Origin: Bacteroidia bacterium
GTDB lineage: Bacteria; Bacteroidota; Bacteroidia; 2-12-FULL-35-15
DNA length: 49,930 nucleotides
Assembly (NCBI GenBank): GCA_046594925.1
Contig: JBKJQG010000132.1
Location: forward strand, 1 to 49,930
Direction: 5' to 3'
Numbering within the stretch: the stretch's first letter is position 1; each line of letters begins with the position of its first letter. Below the pieces are notes generated by a model. The model was not told the DNA's origin, made no database searches, and saw only the letters and a list, made by a program, of their open reading frames with translations. A program made the position numbers and the translations under genes. This document shows, in pieces, positions 3,197 through 48,197 of this stretch.

Positions 3197-5812
3197 TTAC
3201 TCCTCCCCTTCTTTATCCAAATGCTGCTGTACCACTTCGATTGCATTTGTGATCACATCACTTAATGCGGTAATAAAACTACCATCCTTTGCAATATTAA
3301 TCGCGTGCTTAATGGCATCTGTTTCTTTCGGAATGATCTCATAGGTTACTTCTTTATCCACCGATTTAATTCCTTCGATAATTAAATTGATGATCTCTTC
3401 TTCGGTTCTTCCGCGCAAATGTTTTTCCTGACGGATGATGATGTGATCGAACATTCTTGCTGCAATCACTGCACAATCCTTGATGTCGCTATCTCTTCTA
3501 TCGCCTACTCCAGCAATGATTCCGACTTTATGTGGAGACTGGATACTTTGCAAGAAATCTTCGATGCCTAAATAGCCGGAAGGATTGTGAGCAAAATCGA
3601 TCATCACTTTGAATTTCTTGAAGTCGAAGATGTTCATTCGGCCAGGAGTTTGCGCAGCACTCGGAATGAAGGTTGCCAAAGAAGTTTTGATGTCCTCTGT
3701 TTTGAATCCCCACAAGTAACTTGCTAATGTCGCTGCCAGCACATTCGCTATCATGAATTTTGCTTTCCCGTTCAAAGTCAAAGGAACGTGTGTTGCTTTT
3801 TCAACACGCATCTTCCAGTCGCCTTTTTTGATGGTGATGTATCCATTCTCATAGATCGCAGCAATTCCGCCTGTGCGGCAGTGATTCACGATCACGTCGC
3901 AATGTTCGTTCATGCTGAAGTAAGCCACTTTGCAATCCACTTCTTTCGCAATTTCCACACAGTTCACATCGTCAGCATTCAATACAGCCCAACCACCTTT
4001 TTTAACGCTGTTCACTACCACTGCTTTCACACGTGAAAGATCTTTCAGATCGTGAATGTCGCTGATGCCCAAATGATCTTCCTGAATGTTGGTGATGATC
4101 CCGATGTCGCAGCGGCTGAATCCTAAACCGGAACGGAGGATTCCTCCTCGTGCTGTTTCGAGAACTGCAAATTCCACTGTCGGATCTTTCAGAATAAACT
4201 CCGTGCTCAGAGGTCCGGTAGTATCGCCCTTTTCGAGCATGTGGTTCTGAACATAAATTCCGTCGGAAGTCGTAAAGCCGACTTTGTATCCGTTGTTTTT
4301 TACTATGTGAGCGATCAAACGCGTGGTGGTTGTTTTTCCATTTGTCCCTGTCACTGCAATGATAGGAATGCGTGAAGGTTTTCCCAAAGGATACAACATG
4401 TCTATCACCGGAGCGGCCACGTTGCGGGGCAACCCTTCTGAAGGCGCCAGGTGCATGCGGAATCCTGGTGCTGCGTTCACTTCCAAAATAACGCCTCCAT
4501 TTTCTTTCAGCGATTGCGTTAAATTTTTTGCCATGATGTCGATTCCGCAAACATCCAATCCTATGACACGGGAAATTCTCTCAGCAAGGAAAATATTTTC
4601 AGGGTGCAACATTTCGGTCACGTCGATGGACGTTCCGCCGGTACTTAAATTCGCAGTTGATTTTAAATAAACCACTTCCTTAGCGGGTGGAACGCTTTCC
4701 AAAGTATAATTCTTCTTTTCCAGCAGGTCCATCGTGTCGCGGTCGACTGTGATCTCCGTCAGTACGTTTTCGTGTCCGTACCCTCGTCGAGGATCTCTGT
4801 TCGTTTCATCGATGAGTTGCTGAACCGTTTGTTTTCCATCCCCGATCACATTTGCCGGCACGCGTTGAGCTGCTGCTACCAGTTTATTGTCTATGACCAG
4901 CATGCGGAAGTCATACCCCGTTATAAATTTCTCGACGATTACTTTACGTGAATATTTTTGTGCAAAAGCCAGTCCGGCGACTGCATCCTCGTATTTATTG
5001 ATGTTGATGGAAACCCCTTTTCCGTGATTTCCGTCCAGAGGTTTTAAAACCACGGGGTAGCCTATGCGTTTGATGATGTTTTCCAGATCTTCTTCATCCA
5101 CACAGATCCCGCCTTTCGCAACGGGAATAGAAGCAGCATCCAGCATTTGTTTGGTTTGTTCTTTATTGCAAGCAATGTCAACGGCGATACTGCTGGTCTT
5201 GCAAGTAATGGTCGCCTGAAAGCGCATCTGGTTCACGCCATAACCCAACTGAACAAGGGAATTTGAGCCCAAACGGATCCAAGGGATGTCCCTGGCCACG
5301 GCTTCGTCCACAATACTGCCGGTGCTTGGCCCAAGGCGGACATCCTCGCGGATCTCACGCATTTTTTTCAGATCAGCCTGCAGGTCGTAGGGAACATTGT
5401 CGGCCAATGCCTGGGCAATCTGAACCGCCGATTCAGCAGCAAAAATGCCTACTTTTTCCTCCACATAGCTAAAAACAACGTTGTAAACGCCAGGCGTCTT
5501 GGTTTCGCGGGTTCTTCCGTATCCAGTTTCCATTCCAGCAAGCGACTGAGTCTCCAGGGCAATGTGTTCTATTACGTGCCCCATCCAGGTGCCTCTTTCA
5601 ACACGTTGAAAAAAGCCTCCGCGAACCTCTTCCGAGCAGCGGTGCTCTATCATTGTTGGGAACATGGCTTCCAGCCTTTCTTTGAATCCCTTGATTTTAT
5701 TCGTTGGCAGCTGTTCCATTCCTTCCAGGTCCAGCCTCATTTGTATCAATTTTTTTCTGCTTACGCTCCAGATGTTCGGGCCTCTCAATGCTTGTATGCT
5801 AAGTGCTTTCAT
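3197..5812 (-). CDS. cphA: Cyanophycin synthetase CphA1
   Basis: LRGPNIWS N-terminus; Cx19HxxEH N-domain site; ATP-grasp (KPLDGNHGKG, ANLSTGG, EVNAAPGFRMH); Mur-ligase-like domain (GTNGKTTT, ETARGG, PGRMN, DFAHNP). Confidence 0.97.
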   Translation of the reverse strand: MKALSIQALRGPNIWSVSRKKLIQMRLDLEGMEQLPTNKIKGFKERLEAMFPTMIEHRCSEEVRGGFFQRVERGTWMGHVIEHIALETQSLAGMETGYGRTRETKTPGVYNVVFSYVEEKVGIFAAESAVQIAQALADNVPYDLQADLKKMREIREDVRLGPSTGSIVDEAVARDIPWIRLGSNSLVQLGYGVNQMRFQATITCKTSSIAVDIACNKEQTKQMLDAASIPVAKGGICVDEEDLENIIKRIGYPVVLKPLDGNHGKGVSININKYEDAVAGLAFAQKYSRKVIVEKFITGYDFRMLVIDNKLVAAAQRVPANVIGDGKQTVQQLIDETNRDPRRGYGHENVLTEITVDRDTMDLLEKKNYTLESVPPAKEVVYLKSTANLSTGGTSIDVTEMLHPENIFLAERISRVIGLDVCGIDIMAKNLTQSLKENGGVILEVNAAPGFRMHLAPSEGLPRNVAAPVIDMLYPLGKPSRIPIIAVTGTNGKTTTTRLIAHIVKNNGYKVGFTTSDGIYVQNHMLEKGDTTGPLSTEFILKDPTVEFAVLETARGGILRSGLGFSRCDIGIITNIQEDHLGISDIHDLKDLSRVKAVVVNSVKKGGWAVLNADDVNCVEIAKEVDCKVAYFSMNEHCDVIVNHCRTGGIAAIYENGYITIKKGDWKMRVEKATHVPLTLNGKAKFMIANVLAATLASYLWGFKTEDIKTSLATFIPSAAQTPGRMNIFDFKKFKVMIDFAHNPSGYLGIEDFLQSIQSPHKVGIIAGVGDRRDSDIKDCAVIAARMFDHIIIRQEKHLRGRTEEEIINLIIEGIKSVDKEVTYEIIPKETDAIKHAINIAKDGSFITALSDVITNAIEVVQQHLDKEGEE

Positions 5813-6007
5813 AAATTAAGAATTGGTGTTTAATGCTGTATTACTTGAAAAAAATGCCCCAAAACAGGGCACAAAGGGATGTAAGATAGCACGAAATTTT
5901 CTGAAATCAAAGAAAAAATCGGCAGGACGGTGATAATCCACAGTGACCTTTTGATAAAAAACATTTTTCGGTCAAAATGATGTTGTTTTTTCTGATATTT
6001 TTATGAC

Positions 6008-6898
6008 ATGAATCCAAAAGGTAAATTAATTGTCATCGGTGGGGCTGTTGACAAAGGCAGTTTCACTGAAAAGAATTTCGACAAGCAGGTAGAAAAAAAC
6101 CTGAATTTTTTTGAGACCGGAATTTTAAAACGTCTGCTCATTGAATCCAGATTGAAAGAAGAATCTCAGATCGAGATCATCACTACAGCATCGAAAATCC
6201 CGAAGGAAGTAGGCCCCGAATATGCCAAGGCACTTGAATACCTCGGAGCAAAAAATGTGAGTGTCCTGCACATTGAGACACGCGCAGAAGCTTTACTAGA
6301 GGAGAATGCCGCGAGAGTGAGTAAAGCGGACGTGGTACTTTTTACCGGTGGGGATCAGTTGCGTTTATCATCCATTCTCGGAGGAACACCCATTCACGAC
6401 CTCATTTTAAAAAAATACGTACTCGAAGATTTTATATATGCCGGAACATCGGCAGGAGCTGCAGCAGCCTCCAACAGCATGATCTATCAAGGATCCAGCA
6501 GCGAAGCTTTGTTAAAAGGAGAAGTAAAGATCACGAGCGGATTGGGCCTGATCGATCATGTGATCATTGATACGCATTTTGTCCACCGGGGAAGAATAGG
6601 AAGATTGTTTCAAGCGGTCGTTGGAAATCCCCGTACCCTGGGCATAGGGTTGGGAGAAGATACCGGGCTGTTGATCACCAATGGGGACTCTATGGAAGCC
6701 ATCGGATCCGGACTAATCATTCTGGTGGATGGACGCAACATTAAAGACACCAACCTGACACACGTAGAGATGGGCACTCCGATCTCGATAAAGCACCTGG
6801 TGGTGCATGTGATGAGTAAGCACGATCATTACGACCTGACCAAACATGAAATGACCATACACATGCAGGTTCCTTTGAAAACGACCACAGATAAATAA
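6008..6898 (+). CDS. cphB: Cyanophycinase (peptidase S51)
   Basis: LIVIGGAVDK, FTGGDQLRL, GTSAGA nucleophile motif, IDTHF..RGR.GRL and GLGEDT; adjacent to cphA. Confidence 0.93.
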   Translation: MNPKGKLIVIGGAVDKGSFTEKNFDKQVEKNLNFFETGILKRLLIESRLKEESQIEIITTASKIPKEVGPEYAKALEYLGAKNVSVLHIETRAEALLEENAARVSKADVVLFTGGDQLRLSSILGGTPIHDLILKKYVLEDFIYAGTSAGAAAASNSMIYQGSSSEALLKGEVKITSGLGLIDHVIIDTHFVHRGRIGRLFQAVVGNPRTLGIGLGEDTGLLITNGDSMEAIGSGLIILVDGRNIKDTNLTHVEMGTPISIKHLVVHVMSKHDHYDLTKHEMTIHMQVPLKTTTDK

Positions 6899-43664: not shown

Positions 43665-45506
43665 ATGTGTGGAATAGTTGCATATATTGGAGACAAACAA
43701 GCCTATCCTTTTTTGATAAAAGGATTGCAAAGACTTGAATACAGAGGGTACGACAGTGCCGGAGTGGCTATGTTGGACAACGGTGATCTGAACGTTTACA
43801 AGTGTAAAGGAAAGGTTGTTGACCTGCACAATTTCATTGGCGAAAAGAACAAAGGCGGAACCATCGGAATAGGACATACGCGCTGGGCGACACACGGTGT
43901 TCCCAATGACGTGAATGCCCACCCGCATTATTCGGCATCCAAGAACATGGTGATGATTCATAACGGCATCATTGAAAACTATGGGCCGCTAAAAGAAGAA
44001 TTAAAAAAACGAGGACACATTTTCGAAAGCGACACCGATACCGAGGTGTTGATCCACCTCATAGAAGACATTCAGCAAAAAGAGAACCTGCGTTTGGGAG
44101 AAGCGGTGCGCATAGCCTTGAATCAGGTTGTAGGAGCATACGCAATTGTCATTCTTTCAAAAAACAATCCCGACGAATTGTTTGCCGCCAAAAAAGGCAG
44201 TCCGATGGTTATAGGAATAGGAGAAAATGAATTTTACATTGCTTCCGATGCAACACCGATTGTGGAGTACACAAAAAATGTGGTTTATCTGGAAGACGAA
44301 GAAATTGCTTTCATTGAAAGAGGAAAAGAGTTAAAGATCAAAACCATCAAGAACAGAGAGAAGACGCCTTATGTTCAGGAATTGGAACTGAAACTCGAAG
44401 CGCTTGAAAAAGGCGGCTACGACCATTTCATGTTAAAAGAAATCTATGAGCAACCGCGTTCCATCAAGGACAGTATGCGCGGGCGTTTGAGCTCCTCCGA
44501 AGGAGTGGTGAATCTGGGTGGGATCACAGAATACGAACAAAAATTCATCAATGCAAAACGCATCCTCATCATTGCCTGCGGAACATCCTGGCATGCCGGA
44601 CTGGTTGCTGAATATTTATTTGAAGACCTTGCACGCATTCCCGTGGAGGTGGAATACGCGTCCGAATTCCGTTACCGGAATCCGATCGTGTATGAGGACG
44701 ATGTAGTGATCGCCATTTCACAATCCGGAGAAACCGCAGATACTTTAGCTGCGATTGAGTTGGCAAAATCAAAAGGAGCAACCATCATCGGAGTATGTAA
44801 TGTGGTAGGTTCGAGTATTGCCAGAGCAACTCATGCAGGTTCATATACCCACGCCGGGCCGGAAATTGGTGTGGCTTCCACAAAAGCATTCACCGCTCAA
44901 GTAACCGTCCTCACTTTGATGGCTTTGAGAATTGCATTCAGAAAAGGAACCATTTCTTCTTCCCGCTTCCATACTTTATTAAGTGAGCTGGAAGCAATTC
45001 CTGCGAAAATAGAACGCGTGTTGCAAACCAACGACAAAATAAAATACATTGCTGATATTTACAAAAATGTGAACAACGCCTTGTACTTGGGCCGCGGATA
45101 CAGCTTTCCTGTTGCTTTGGAAGGGGCCTTGAAATTAAAAGAGATCTCCTACATCCACGCGGAAGGTTATCCTGCCGCTGAAATGAAACACGGTCCTATT
45201 GCTTTGATCGATGAAGAGATGCCTGTTTTTGTAATTGCTACAAAAGGAACTTCTTACGAAAAGGTTGTTAGCAACATCCAGGAAGTAAAAGCCCGTAAAG
45301 GAAAAATCATTGCCATCGTTACCGAAGGAGATACACAAGTAAAAGAAATGGCGGATTATACCATTGAAATTCCTGAGACCGATGAGATCCTCGTTCCATT
45401 GGTTTCTGTTGTTCCCTTGCAATTACTTTCTTACCACATTGCGGTAATGAGAGGCTGTAATGTGGATCAGCCTAGAAATTTGGCTAAGAGTGTTACTGTG
45501 GAGTAA
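43665..45506 (+). CDS. glmS: Glutamine--fructose-6-phosphate aminotransferase
   Basis: MCGIV, LEYRGYDSAG, GHTRWATHG, ACGTSWHA, SQSGETADT, VASTKAF, EMKHGP and PRNLAKSVTVE. Confidence 0.99.
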   Translation: MCGIVAYIGDKQAYPFLIKGLQRLEYRGYDSAGVAMLDNGDLNVYKCKGKVVDLHNFIGEKNKGGTIGIGHTRWATHGVPNDVNAHPHYSASKNMVMIHNGIIENYGPLKEELKKRGHIFESDTDTEVLIHLIEDIQQKENLRLGEAVRIALNQVVGAYAIVILSKNNPDELFAAKKGSPMVIGIGENEFYIASDATPIVEYTKNVVYLEDEEIAFIERGKELKIKTIKNREKTPYVQELELKLEALEKGGYDHFMLKEIYEQPRSIKDSMRGRLSSSEGVVNLGGITEYEQKFINAKRILIIACGTSWHAGLVAEYLFEDLARIPVEVEYASEFRYRNPIVYEDDVVIAISQSGETADTLAAIELAKSKGATIIGVCNVVGSSIARATHAGSYTHAGPEIGVASTKAFTAQVTVLTLMALRIAFRKGTISSSRFHTLLSELEAIPAKIERVLQTNDKIKYIADIYKNVNNALYLGRGYSFPVALEGALKLKEISYIHAEGYPAAEMKHGPIALIDEEMPVFVIATKGTSYEKVVSNIQEVKARKGKIIAIVTEGDTQVKEMADYTIEIPETDEILVPLVSVVPLQLLSYHIAVMRGCNVDQPRNLAKSVTVE

Positions 45507-45527: not shown

Positions 45528-45555
45528 AAAAGTCCCGGGATTCCGGGACTTTTTT
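45528..45555 (+). terminator. Rho-independent terminator after glmS
   Basis: AAAAGTCCCGG-GATT-CCGGGACTTTTTT. Confidence 0.9.
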
Positions 45556-45628
45556 GTTTTAACCTGAGCAAGTTTAACGCTCAAATTCCCTTCAGAGACT
45601 GCATAGGATCATTTTGAGAGGAATTGGC

Positions 45629-45719
45629 TATATTTGAATATGCGAACCAAATTTCCCCAATCCATACCAAGATGGGTGTATAGGTGAACAAAAGGTTCGG
45701 GTATAAACAAGTTAGGTGC
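45629..45719 (+). promoter_or_regulatory. Putative cassette-array promoter (TATATTTG) and attI-like head ending in core GTTAGGT
   Basis: -7 box at 45629-45636. GTTAGGTGC (45711-45719) is the exact reverse complement of GCACCTAAC (46138-46146). Confidence 0.5.
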
Positions 45720-45743
45720 AAGTTTCCTATACCGTGCGACATT

Positions 45744-46145
45744 ATGATACATTCGACATTTATACTTGACATTTTCGACCTCTTATTTGACGGAGATGAA
45801 ATCGGTGTGAATCTAAGAAAACAAGTAAACTTCTTGACCGAGGCTGAATATGAATATACAAGTGTTGGTGTTTTTGTTAATTTCACTTACAGTATCGGTA
45901 TAGACAAATATAGAATTCTCTCGACAGCGTTAAACCACGGTGACGTGCTCAATGGTGTAACAATTCATAGCGACAAAAATAATGTTGAAGCAGACGCACA
46001 AGTTTTTTTAAAAGATGGACTTATCTGCTATCTGGAGATTTGGAATAAAATTGGCGACTATCCTTCCAAAGATCTAGACGATTATGTAATGACGCAAGAT
46101 TGGAAAGACGCTCCCGGACGACAAAGAGTTAAAACCAGCACCTAA
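45744..46145 (+). CDS. Hypothetical protein (cassette 1)
   Basis: ATG 45744 lies just after the core site; the stop TAA falls inside the inverse core ACCTAAC. Confidence 0.7.
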   Translation: MIHSTFILDIFDLLFDGDEIGVNLRKQVNFLTEAEYEYTSVGVFVNFTYSIGIDKYRILSTALNHGDVLNGVTIHSDKNNVEADAQVFLKDGLICYLEIWNKIGDYPSKDLDDYVMTQDWKDAPGRQRVKTST

Positions 46146-46270
46146 CAGCCGTCTGGCGCCATTTGGGCATCTCGCTTCGCGAAACAAATTATAATTAACA
46201 TTGAAAATTAAACTTCGCCATAAAAAATAGTAAGAAACCCAAACGAGCGCCAAGCCGAAAACCGTTATCG
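46140..46270 (+). other. attC-like recombination site A
   Basis: ACCTAAC...GTTATCG with imperfect arms CCGTCTGGCGCCATTTGGG / CCCAAACGAGCGCCAAGCCG. Confidence 0.65.
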
Positions 46271-46320
46271 ATGACGGGTGGCACGACAAAAAAAGAAATA
46301 TTTTATACCTTTAGATAATT

Positions 46321-46764
46321 ATGAAATACGAAAAATATCAGCTTGAATCGGACAGAAAACTATTACTCTTTGAATTTGTTAGCGTTGGACCGAAGGGTAG
46401 AATAAAAAAGATCGTTCAATACACCGAAACCAATTTGAAGGACTATTATAATTTAGGATTCGGAGACAAAGATGAAAAAACCGGAGAGATTAACGACCTT
46501 GTAATAACCAATAATGGTGACAGTCAGCAAGTTTTGGCAACCGTTGCTTCAACCGTCTATGCCTTTACAGACAAACATCCGGACGCTTGGATATACGCCA
46601 GAGGAAGCAATAACGCTCGGACTAGGCTTTACCGGATCGGAATAACTAATAATTTGTTAGAAATCAAGAAAGACTTTGAAGTATTTGGCTTAAAAGACGA
46701 TCAGTGGCACACATTCCGGAGAGACATCGACTATAAAGCATTTTTAATTAAGAGAAAAAAGTAG
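46321..46764 (+). CDS. DUF6934-like protein (cassette 2)
   Basis: FEFVSVGPKG.IKKIVQY, YNLGFGD, TNNGD..QVLATVA and GS..ARTRLY; family recognised from memory, not by search. Confidence 0.75.
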   Translation: MKYEKYQLESDRKLLLFEFVSVGPKGRIKKIVQYTETNLKDYYNLGFGDKDEKTGEINDLVITNNGDSQQVLATVASTVYAFTDKHPDAWIYARGSNNARTRLYRIGITNNLLEIKKDFEVFGLKDDQWHTFRRDIDYKAFLIKRKK

Positions 46765-46779
46765 TAAATTTGTACTATC

Positions 46780-46944
46780 ATGACAGTTAAAGAATTAAAT
46801 AAATCCAAAACGCCAATCGTCAAAATTAACAAGACGCTTGACAAACTCGCTACGAAAGTACTTTTCCCGGACAAGTTGGAGGAAGCTAATCGTATTCTCA
46901 AGACGGTTGGTTTACCGAAAACAAAAACACCCCACCACCGCTAA
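46780..46944 (+). CDS. Small basic protein, 54 aa (not in the ORF track); putative partner of the DUF6934-like protein
   Basis: MTVKELNKSKTPIVKINKTLDKLATKVLFPDKLEEANRILKTVGLPKTKTPHHR*. TAAATTTG box at 46765-46772; stop falls inside inverse core CGCTAAC. Confidence 0.7.
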   Translation: MTVKELNKSKTPIVKINKTLDKLATKVLFPDKLEEANRILKTVGLPKTKTPHHR

Positions 46945-47069
46945 CACAGGGCAATCGCAAAAATTGATTTTCGCTCCGTAAAACAATTTTTTTGTATGTT
47001 TATAATTCCAGCTTCGCAGAAAAACTTCATTTATAATCGCCTTCTGCGCCAGGCCTGAGAATGTTGGGT
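46939..47069 (+). other. attC-like recombination site B
   Basis: CGCTAAC...GTTGGGT; same length as site A and aligns to it without gaps; arms more degenerate. Confidence 0.6.
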
Positions 47070-47087: not shown

Positions 47088-48197
47088 ATGGACTACAAAA
47101 GAATCCCCATAGAAATTGAATCGCCTGAACAACTGGGTTATTCAAATGTAAAATACAACCTGACGGAAAGCTCCGTCAGCGACACCGTTATGGGCAACAT
47201 TCAACTGAACATCAATGACCTAAAGTTGGCATATACCGATCATATAGGAAAACCAGAACTGAGAGCATTGTTGATTTCTGAATACAAAAACCTCAGCAAA
47301 GAAAACATCCTGATCACGGCCGGTGCTGCCTCTGCTTTATTCATCGTCGCCACCTCCCTGCTCGAAAAAGAAGATCATTTGATTGTCCTGCGTCCGAATT
47401 ATGCTTCCAACATTGAAACACCCCGGGCGATAGGTTGCGAGATCGATTTTGTCGACCTCAAATTCGAAAATAGCTTTACTGTTTCTGTTGAAGAGATTCG
47501 CTCCAAAATAAAACCAAACACAAAACTAATCAGCATCACCCATCCGCACAACCCAACGGGAATGGTCATTCCGAAAGAAACGATGTTGGAAATAGCTGAC
47601 CTAGCCGAAAAGAACAATTGCATTTTGTTGGTCGATGAAACCTATCGTGAATTAAACCTGGACAACATCTACCCACTTGCGGCTTCATTACACAAGAGGG
47701 TCATCTCCGTCGGCTCGGTTTCAAAAGCTTACGGATTACCAGGAATTCGCATTGGCTGGCTCGTGACTCGCGACAAAAAATTATTTGAAAAATTTCTCGC
47801 AGCAAAAGAACAGATCTTTCTTTGCAATTCAGTGATCGATGAGGAGGTCGCATACCAGTATCTGTTAAAGAAGGAACAGCACTTCAAAGGCATCAGAGAA
47901 CATATCCATAAAAATTATCAAACGGTGATAAATTGGATAGCTTCTGAACAGCGCATGGAAATGATCGAACCCGGCGGAGGGGTGGTCTGCTTTCCGAGAA
48001 TAAAAAACAAAGACCTGAATGCTGCCCTATTCTACGAGACACTGAATAAAAAATACGAGACCTTTGTAGGTCCCGGCCATTGGTTTGAAATGCCCGCCCA
48101 TTACATGCGCATAGGATACGGCTGGCCATCGAATGAAGAGTTGACGCAAGGACTGAAAAACATCTCCTTGTGCCTGGACGACTTGGGAATGCGTTGA
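47088..48197 (+). CDS. PLP-dependent aminotransferase class I/II
   Basis: ITAGAA.AL, PHNPTG, VDETY and SVSKAYGLPGIRIGW; ATG 47088 preferred. Confidence 0.9.
   Translation: MDYKRIPIEIESPEQLGYSNVKYNLTESSVSDTVMGNIQLNINDLKLAYTDHIGKPELRALLISEYKNLSKENILITAGAASALFIVATSLLEKEDHLIVLRPNYASNIETPRAIGCEIDFVDLKFENSFTVSVEEIRSKIKPNTKLISITHPHNPTGMVIPKETMLEIADLAEKNNCILLVDETYRELNLDNIYPLAASLHKRVISVGSVSKAYGLPGIRIGWLVTRDKKLFEKFLAAKEQIFLCNSVIDEEVAYQYLLKKEQHFKGIREHIHKNYQTVINWIASEQRMEMIEPGGGVVCFPRIKNKDLNAALFYETLNKKYETFVGPGHWFEMPAHYMRIGYGWPSNEELTQGLKNISLCLDDLGMR

Follow-up and report, generated by a model that had tools for sequence, protein, structure and literature searches.

A probable orphan integron-type cassette platform downstream of glmS in a soil Bacteroidia genome

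In classical integrons, the integrase gene is divergent from the cassette array and the attI site lies upstream of that gene, and in the Treponema-type ‘inverted’ integrons the integrase is co-oriented with the array. Circular cassettes linearised at the G|TT of their own site and then inserted elsewhere leave the 5′ end of the cassette complementary to its own R″ box. Among Xer-dependent systems, the dif modules on Acinetobacter plasmids have dif sites that alternate in orientation. The archaeal-integron paper gives an additional domain as a defining characteristic of integron integrases (IntIs) and places archaeal attIs immediately downstream of intI, PMC7790495 ties the I2 helix to the move of integron integrases from double- to single-strand recombination, and the IntegronFinder 2.0 paper states that Bacteroidetes had earlier yielded only In0 elements, that one complete integron was found, in Salinibacter ruber, and that complete integrons are very rare there; a review counts Bacteroidota among the phyla with integrons. 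Searches of the main texts of open-access papers (PMC) and bioRxiv preprints turned up no account of a Bacteroidota recombinase without I2 that is linked to cassette arrays. Here, we analysed a 49,930-nucleotide (nt) stretch of DNA, hereafter the window, which is the entire contig C95 of a soil Bacteroidia assembly (3.89 Mb, 384 contigs). Positions 45618–47069, downstream of glmS, very probably constitute an orphan integron-type platform, in which a head with a promoter-like and an attI-like element is followed by two cassettes that each end in an attC-like site of about 131 nt.

An earlier reading of this DNA from its letters (the sequence-only reading) had proposed an integron-like array here, and the analysis supported that view. 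The five core boxes that it had pointed out were all found in place, GTTAGGT at 45711, GTTATCG at 46264 and GTTGGGT at 47063 as core-like boxes, and ACCTAAC at 46140 and CGCTAAC at 46939 as inverse cores, which hold the stop codons of the preceding open reading frames (ORFs; ORF1 ends at 46145 and ORF3 at 46944). For cassette 1, reverse-complementing GCACCTAAC at 46138 gives exactly the GTTAGGTGC that stands at 45711 (9/9), and GTTATCG matches CGCTAAC at 6/7 positions, or 7/9 on extension. Sites A and B, 131 nt each, are identical at 67/131 positions without gaps, a value reached by 0/5000 shuffles of site B (mean 33.6, s.d. 4.9). The features of the locus were as follows.

45618–45725, plus strand: head, consisting of a promoter-like box, a leader and an attI-like crossover point, from homology to recombinase-adjacent regions
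45629–45636, plus strand: promoter-like TAnnTTTG box TATATTTG in the head, ahead of the first core as had been claimed, from sequence match
45711 (the G), plus strand: attI-like crossover point TATAAACAAG|TTAGGTGC in the head, from sequence
45712–46264, plus strand: cassette 1, 553 nt, from the start of TTAGGTGC to the G of the right core of site A, from boundary complementarity
45744–46145, plus strand: ORF1, 133 amino acids (aa) from its ATG, in cassette 1, without a Pfam family
46140–46270, plus strand: attC-like site A, R″ ACCTAAC ... R′ GTTATCG, 114.2 bits with model R1
46265–47063, plus strand: cassette 2, 799 nt, with ORF2 and ORF3, from its boundaries
46321–46764, plus strand: ORF2, DUF6934 (PF22028, 3.1e-59)
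46780–46944, plus strand: ORF3, 54 aa, from the ORF listing
46939–47069, plus strand: attC-like site B, R″ CGCTAAC ... R′ GTTGGGT, stems partly mismatched, 96.7 bits with R1

Two attC-like sites 799 nt apart without a nearby integrase make this an integrase-less cluster, with ‘attC’ used only in the sense of the tests applied here. No tyrosine-recombinase match was found on the window contig, and the matches in this genome all lay on contigs C325, C381, C267 and C132.

A hidden Markov model (HMM) built from sites A and B and iterated with nhmmer to convergence gathered a family of 17 copies on 13 contigs of this genome, several of them paired at 700–1300-nt spacing, several at contig ends, and some single and dispersed. 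R1, the covariance model used for scans, had matches in 50/68 genomes of the genus. In the alignment of the copies from this genome (A1), mean column identity was 66%, the ends were near-invariant (TAAC at 5′ and GTTA at 3′), and two subfamilies were distinguished whose stems differ by paired substitutions. A structure of 21 pairs, obtained by our own maximum-pairing pass on A1 and then counted on A1, which favours the fraction of cells paired, had 83.6% of cells pairing vs 30–40% when the partners were slid by 1–3 columns. Compensatory changes occurred in 12 of the 21 pairs, and the covariation score was 0.314 vs 0.146 in shuffles, none of which (0/500) reached it. As in integrons, the imperfect palindrome R″-L″...L′-R′ is conserved in structure. 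The bottom strand was the stabler in 63 of 81 sites and equal in 2 (mean −22.35 vs −20.33 kcal/mol; Wilcoxon p 3e-8), in line with the fold-back that had been predicted. Imperfect inverted arms had been described for both window sites; they were recovered in site A, whose bottom strand can form an imperfect hairpin of considerable length (−19.6 kcal/mol, z −2.5, 3/200 shuffles as good), and only weakly in site B.

The att sites are less non-canonical than had been suggested, with the R″-L″...L′-R′ layout, the TAAC/GTTA cores and a length of about 130 nt; the recombinase described below is the non-canonical part. Compared with RYYYAAC/GTTRRRY, the cores were near-invariant at TAAC/GTTA, and the other positions agreed with the consensus in part, GTTAGGC fitting and GTTATGC and GTTAGCA not fitting. 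The sites seem to differ from those of integrons in the asymmetric spacer between the R and L boxes (1 nt vs 5 nt), which is accompanied by subfamily-specific mismatches. No family in Rfam matched them. The site loop contains a conserved direct repeat, GCTTCG(Y)AA, at A1 columns ~39–47 and 77–86 (46172–46225 and 46971–47020 in the window), which might be a protein-binding or promoter element; attC loops are normally variable, and a conserved loop repeat is unusual.

The rule at the cassette boundaries was examined in the terminal 9 nt at either end of 57 sites, which comprised 42 of the 52 R1 rows (3 partial rows, 2 opposite-strand duplicates and 5 with E>0.02 were dropped) and 15 sites of this genome outside the window. 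Over the five variable positions after GTTA, the reverse-complemented left core of a site and the right core of the site before it agreed at 5/5 in 21 of 33 adjacent pairs (same strand, <4 kb apart) and at ≥4/5 in 27 of the 33. In the controls, agreement with a site's own right core averaged 2.0/5 (n=57) and that of random pairs also 2.0/5, with P(5/5)=0.024. The crossover is placed at G|TT, as in integrons, and the left end of a cassette is therefore complementary to the left core of that same cassette. The core/inverse-core pairing that had been noticed in the window thus holds generally in arrays beyond it, with cassette 1 of the window agreeing at 9/9. This boundary complementarity, as read from the DNA, is the signature of integron cassettes.

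Same-strand arrays were frequent in the genus, the example in G004:C1 comprising 12 sites in 17 kb. The longest ORF was co-oriented with its site in 47/48 cassettes and the median spacing was 1105 nt, in agreement with the proposal that the sites sit at the ends of ORFs. As in integrons, co-oriented ORFs are split by imperfect palindromes of about 130 nt, the site sequences are alike within the genome and the genus, small integrase-less clusters lie elsewhere in the genome, and acetyltransferases and toxin-antitoxin modules are found among the contents together with many genes of unknown function. Of ten ORFs taken from cassettes of this genome, five had no Pfam family, and the remaining five encoded a GNAT protein, a HAD hydrolase, a helix-turn-helix protein, a PemK/MazF toxin and a protein with a type IX secretion sorting tail. 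ORF1 of the window had no match in the Pfam search and no relatives in a DNA search of the 68 genus genomes.

Mobilisation in trans by a recombinase encoded elsewhere had also been proposed, and a candidate tyrosine recombinase was found on C325 (432–2078, minus strand, 548 aa), the sole copy of its family in this genome, where three other Xer-like genes of ~300 aa lie on C381, C267 and C132. The integron integrase model TIGR02249 scored 212 bits on this ORF against a cut-off of 265, with model positions 9–179 and 240–315 matched and 180–239 unmatched, and the XerA, XerC and XerD models scored close behind. Neither this genome nor 5 others had a match above 265 bits. Overall, the matches were confined to model positions 3–181 and 238–315, with ~17–21 residues between them. 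Alignment with VchIntIA (2A3V) paired recombinase residues 104–272 with chain positions 10–178 and residues 294–371 with positions 243–320, leaving 21 residues where VchIntIA has 64 (the region with I2); XerA aligned end to end without a gap. The AlphaFold model (predicted local distance difference test, pLDDT, 83.8) had 16 residues between helices 262–275 and 292–306. Unlike integron integrases, the recombinase thus has no IntI-specific additional domain (the I2 helix around patch III), and the same difference sets it apart from the integrases of inverted and archaeal integrons.

The catalytic R, K, H-x-x-R, H and Y were invariant in 16 aligned family members. A fold search placed XerA (4a8e, 5hxy) and IntI4 together at the top, these being the nearest solved relatives in sequence as well, and the enzyme shares with Xer recombinases (XerA, XerC/D) the ‘simple’ architecture that lacks a phage-type arm-binding domain. 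A further difference from integron integrases is an extra N-terminal domain, modelled confidently as an alpha/beta fold at residues 1–70 and present twice in the 546–548-aa forms of the protein. This domain had no Pfam family, its matches in the protein atlas were only Bacteroidota hypothetical proteins with scores ≤0.85, and no match in the PDB fold search was identified as covering it.

The recombinase family was found in 37/68 genus genomes, often at a contig edge with the downstream side running off. Of 23 loci examined, 17 had at least 1.5 kb of downstream sequence; co-oriented R1 sites (E≤0.01) followed the recombinase in 12 of these 17, and one more had a 5-cassette chain of shorter sites. 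The homologues in G004 (378 aa; 41% identical to the 548-aa protein of this genome) and G014:C3 (375 aa) lie directly upstream of an array on the same strand. R1-type sites follow both subfamilies of the recombinase, the 546-aa gene of G009 having an 84-bit site downstream. The resulting order of recombinase gene, attI-like site (within ~100 nt of the stop codon) and cassettes on one strand is that of the Treponema-type and archaeal integrons, and it differs from Xer/dif systems, in which the sites are 28 bp rather than 131-nt structured palindromes; here, the sites keep one orientation per array and recombinase genes lie beside cassette arrays. The system is real and appears to work like an integron, with a recombinase that falls outside the integrase family as now defined. 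In G002 (L110/L090; C32:159996–161073 and 167376–187134), the recombinase gene is divergent from its array. At the second recombinase locus of G079 (L105; G079:C42, 2276–10322), the gene is followed by a 5-cassette chain with sites of ~105 nt that R1 missed, and several attC types therefore coexist in the genus. On C325 itself (L050), a MazE/MazF-type (PemK) pair at 5513–6068 and 5365–5500 on the minus strand ends in an attC-like site with the degenerate right core GCCATTTAA; this unit has the same orientation as the recombinase gene, from which it is 3.3 kb distant on the upstream side.

Sequences following the recombinase genes contained counterparts of the window head. The left boundary of the array, as predicted from the left core of the first site, had the context TATAA..AAG|TTA and was separated from the stop codon of the recombinase by 71 nt in G004 and by 103 nt in G014, the motif TATAArrrAG|TTAnnnnnAA occurred 60–100 nt after the stop in most loci, and a TAnnTTTGA box stood just after the stop at several. 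An attI-like site and a putative promoter are therefore found beside the recombinase gene, downstream of it. An HMM built from 10 recombinase-adjacent regions, the window excluded, had its best match in the whole genome at the window head (45640–45725, E 1.3e-6), on which the head model R2 scored 60.4 bits. The homologue of the head next to a tyrosine recombinase that the sequence-only reading had called for was thereby found, at the recombinase loci of the genus. Since the window head is homologous to the region that follows the recombinase, the locus corresponds to two cassettes behind an orphan attI-like site, an arrangement that is seen again elsewhere in the genus.

The same HMM had four further matches of equal strength, on C232, C310, C209 and C278; the heads on C232, C310 and C278 are followed by a co-oriented attC-like site, with the intervening ORF on the opposite strand on C232, and C209 ends ~0.6 kb past its head. 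Model R2 found a head in 45/68 genomes, in 1–8 copies, both beside and away from recombinase genes, and in G064 a head stands before an array in a genome without a family recombinase. The presence of the attI-like head in several copies per genome is unlike integrons. The six further heads in the present genome, C209:6658–6766(+), C278:4879–4983(−), C232:2275–2381(−), C310:4375–4487(−), C99:5208–5317(+) and, weakly, C126:22534–22623(+), do not adjoin a recombinase gene; cassettes in the same orientation come after most of them. Just upstream of the C232 head (L043, 2386–2471, minus strand), a faint trace of a recombinase C-terminus was detected (tblastn E 0.02–0.08, 15–22 aa), which may be what is left of a recombinase gene after its deletion. 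No such remnant was found by tblastn upstream of the window head. An attI-like G is present at C325:154, ~275 nt after the stop codon of the recombinase of this genome, and is followed by an ORF, taken to be that of a first cassette, that runs off the contig. In the window head, we take TAnnTTTG to be a promoter consensus; a TTTG at 45613 was considered as a −33 box, and its start-to-start distance of only 16 nt from the −7 box led us to make no claim for it.

The chromosomal surroundings of the locus were then compared among relatives. The flanking features were as follows.

43665–45506, plus strand: glmS, 613 aa, the upstream chromosomal flank, from the ORF listing
45528–45553, plus strand: intrinsic terminator of glmS, an 11-bp stem followed by a T-run, from the terminator scan
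47088–48197, plus strand: class I/II aminotransferase, the downstream chromosomal flank (PF00155, 8.3e-44)

About 160 nt of non-coding DNA separate the glmS terminator from ORF1. The C-terminal 149 aa of glmS are 93–99% identical across genus genomes, and 23 genomes with a glmS match were compared. Only G005 has a homologue of the aminotransferase (77% aa identity) after glmS, 140 nt away and with nothing between; unrelated genes follow glmS in the other 22. Gene content 3′ of glmS thus differs among relatives, as had been expected of an array. No indel bounded by G|TT was found at the glmS locus, where the intergenic DNA of G005 is too diverged to place boundaries. The sequence-only reading had named four outcomes that would speak against it, and none of the four was found: further copies of the sites are present, are linked to ORFs and fold on the bottom strand, and the glmS locus varies.

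The mechanism that we propose follows that of integrons. A cassette would be transiently circular, and its attC-like site would fold, probably as a bottom-strand hairpin, with TAAC and GTTA (R″/R′) paired at the base. The tyrosine recombinase would cut at or beside the G|TT of the right core and join the circle to a second G|TT, in the head or in another attC-like site, so that an inserted cassette would start with TTA and its own variable bases and end with their complement. Co-oriented cassettes would be transcribed from the TAnnTTTG promoter of the head. The enzyme would be a Xer/IntI-like ‘simple’ tyrosine recombinase with intact RKHRHY residues, no I2 and the extra N-terminal alpha/beta domain of ~90 aa. 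Because the sole family recombinase of this genome is on C325, the window array could be served only in trans.

Several observations weigh against the integron-type reading. The fold was derived by hand from the very alignment used for counting, and RNAalifold on A1 gave just 7 pairs (−0.85 kcal/mol), for which reason more weight was given to the slid controls and to the pairs with compensatory changes. A1 showed no single extrahelical base that is conserved, a further apparent difference from integrons. The integron literature treats the I2 region as essential for attC recombination; the recombinase here is I2-less, and it is adjacency to arrays that suggests its role in this system. Co-oriented downstream arrays were missing at 4/17 recombinase loci, that of G002, whose array lies on the other side, among them. 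R1 sites occurred in 30/37 genus genomes with the recombinase and in 20/31 without it, an association too weak to count in favour of the reading. In the contigs of four runs, there were no joints indicative of excision or circles and no contig that joined across a cassette; as assembled contigs, these runs are uninformative on excision. One of them may be the source sample, and a second from the same study contains the same sequence in pieces. For the window in particular, the head HMM and R2 both failed, at their thresholds, to match what follows the C325 recombinase gene, and the window head resembles the attI-like regions of the 370–380-aa subfamily, while the genome holds only the 548-aa member. 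Site B folds at −15.1 kcal/mol (z −0.6, 53/200 shuffles as good), and the left end of cassette 2 agrees with the left core of that cassette at no more than 7/9 positions, so that the array may be a fossil.

That the system is real and the window copy an inert relic, left by loss of the recombinase or by an old insertion, with its genes now ordinary chromosomal ones, is a serious possibility, to which we give slightly less than an even chance. It would account for the poor fold of site B, in which the left arm is of one subfamily type and the right arm, resembling the other, is off at 2 positions from the type that pairs with the left arm. It would likewise account for the left end of cassette 2, where TTAGCGGT was expected and the diverged TTATCGAT is present. 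The coding part of this cassette is 80–84% identical in three genomes of other species (G062, G058 and G054), and in G058 it is bounded by GTTAGCGGT...CCGCTAAC, the left boundary being that predicted from window site B; the window end differs from this form at 2/8 positions. The recurrence of cassette 2 in other species, with the predicted boundary in G058, speaks for mobility and so for the integron-type reading, and the window copy looks partly decayed. The mismatch between the subfamily of the sole recombinase and that suggested by the head, the failure of the head models after the C325 gene, and the faint recombinase trace upstream of the C232 head also fit a relic. On the other side, cassette 1 is intact, with site A, its 9/9 boundary and its bottom-strand z of −2.5, the window head has no recombinase remnant upstream, and R1-type sites follow both recombinase subfamilies, including the 546-aa form in G009.

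An unlikely alternative is that cassettes are exchanged as double-stranded DNA in the manner of Xer/dif, with the hairpin a by-product of two inverted binding arms. The enzyme lends this view some weight by its gapless alignment to archaeal XerA and its 21 residues in place of the 64 of VchIntIA, the very region whose I2 helix moved integron integrases to single-strand recombination according to PMC7790495, and an overlap region might be provided by the semi-conserved bases (GGAACG or AAACCG) immediately left of the cut. The sites themselves argue otherwise. Covariation extends across ~20 pairs far from the cores, beyond two binding arms, and the bottom strand is systematically the stabler. 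Partner sites carry different variable bases beside the cut, so that an exchange dependent on homology would be impeded on that side, and all sites of an array have one orientation, in contrast to the alternating sites of dif modules. It is most improbable that the 131-nt elements are unrelated to a recombinase and are a palindromic intergenic repeat (miniature inverted-repeat transposable element, repetitive extragenic palindrome or enterobacterial repetitive intergenic consensus) or hairpins that stabilise or terminate RNA 3′ ends, for although they are multi-copy, intergenic and palindromic, in part single and dispersed, and carry the internal GCTTCG repeat unusual for attC loops, such elements would leave the complementarity between neighbours unexplained, arrays begin at recombinase genes and ORFs are co-oriented with the sites, neither window site was terminator-like in the terminator scan, Rfam gave no match, and the copies are not the near-identical ones, independent of gene orientation and recombinase, that define such repeats.

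Recombinases of the family, with the N-terminal part included, extend across Bacteroidota outside the genus, with at least 7998 proteins at E≤1e-30 that carry source names such as ‘site-specific tyrosine recombinase/integron integrase’ or ‘XerD’. R1 gave only weak matches (≤23.9 bits) in 39 recombinase loci of other Bacteroidota, and a model-free detector of cassette chains was therefore used, which takes a 9-mer GTTnnnnnn, its reverse complement 250–5000 nt downstream, and the next pair 40–220 nt later. In the 3.8 Mb of the present genome, the detector returned 12 chains of exactly 3 and none of ≥4, and only chains of ≥5 were therefore counted; a chain of 3 in a Spirochaeota-labelled metagenome-assembled genome (L141) was at this background level and was left out. 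Chains of 5–6 cassettes began 71 nt after the recombinase stop codon in Flavobacteriaceae bacterium S0862 and 60 nt after it in the cultured Winogradskyella ursingii HL4150, and in Psychroserpens sp. AS72 (L136) a chain of 6 ended just upstream of the recombinase gene. The sites in the Flavobacteriaceae chains are ~135 nt long and of the CAAC...GTTG type. The system is thus present in a soil Bacteroidia genus and in marine Flavobacteriaceae.

Whether Bacteroidota hold a phylum-wide class of integrons is, in our estimate, evenly poised. Such a class would have an I2-less Xer/IntI-like integrase with the N-terminal domain, encoded upstream of and co-oriented with attI and the array, and the several orphan heads per genome would serve as landing pads for the capture and expression of cassettes at many loci; it could be an ancestral form that precedes I2 or an independent route to the recombination of folded attC sites. 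Integrons are in practice defined by an I2-bearing integrase, and here the full boundary signature sits with an I2-less recombinase family. If this recombinase is the cassette recombinase, the requirement for I2 is not universal and the notion of the integron widens, surveys may have overlooked an extensive pool of mobile cassettes in a major phylum, and the origin of attC recombination from Xer-like enzymes becomes testable in a cultured organism. If the class is indeed phylum-wide, tools that require I2 would not call such loci complete integrons.

Two minor observations concern cassette 2. A contig from a groundwater metagenome matches 46468–47069 at ~92% identity (47 differing letters and 3 gaps in ~600 nt). 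The DUF6934 gene ORF2 and the 54-aa ORF3 (46321–46944 in the window) occur together in all three other species that carry ORF2, and the two may form a two-gene module.

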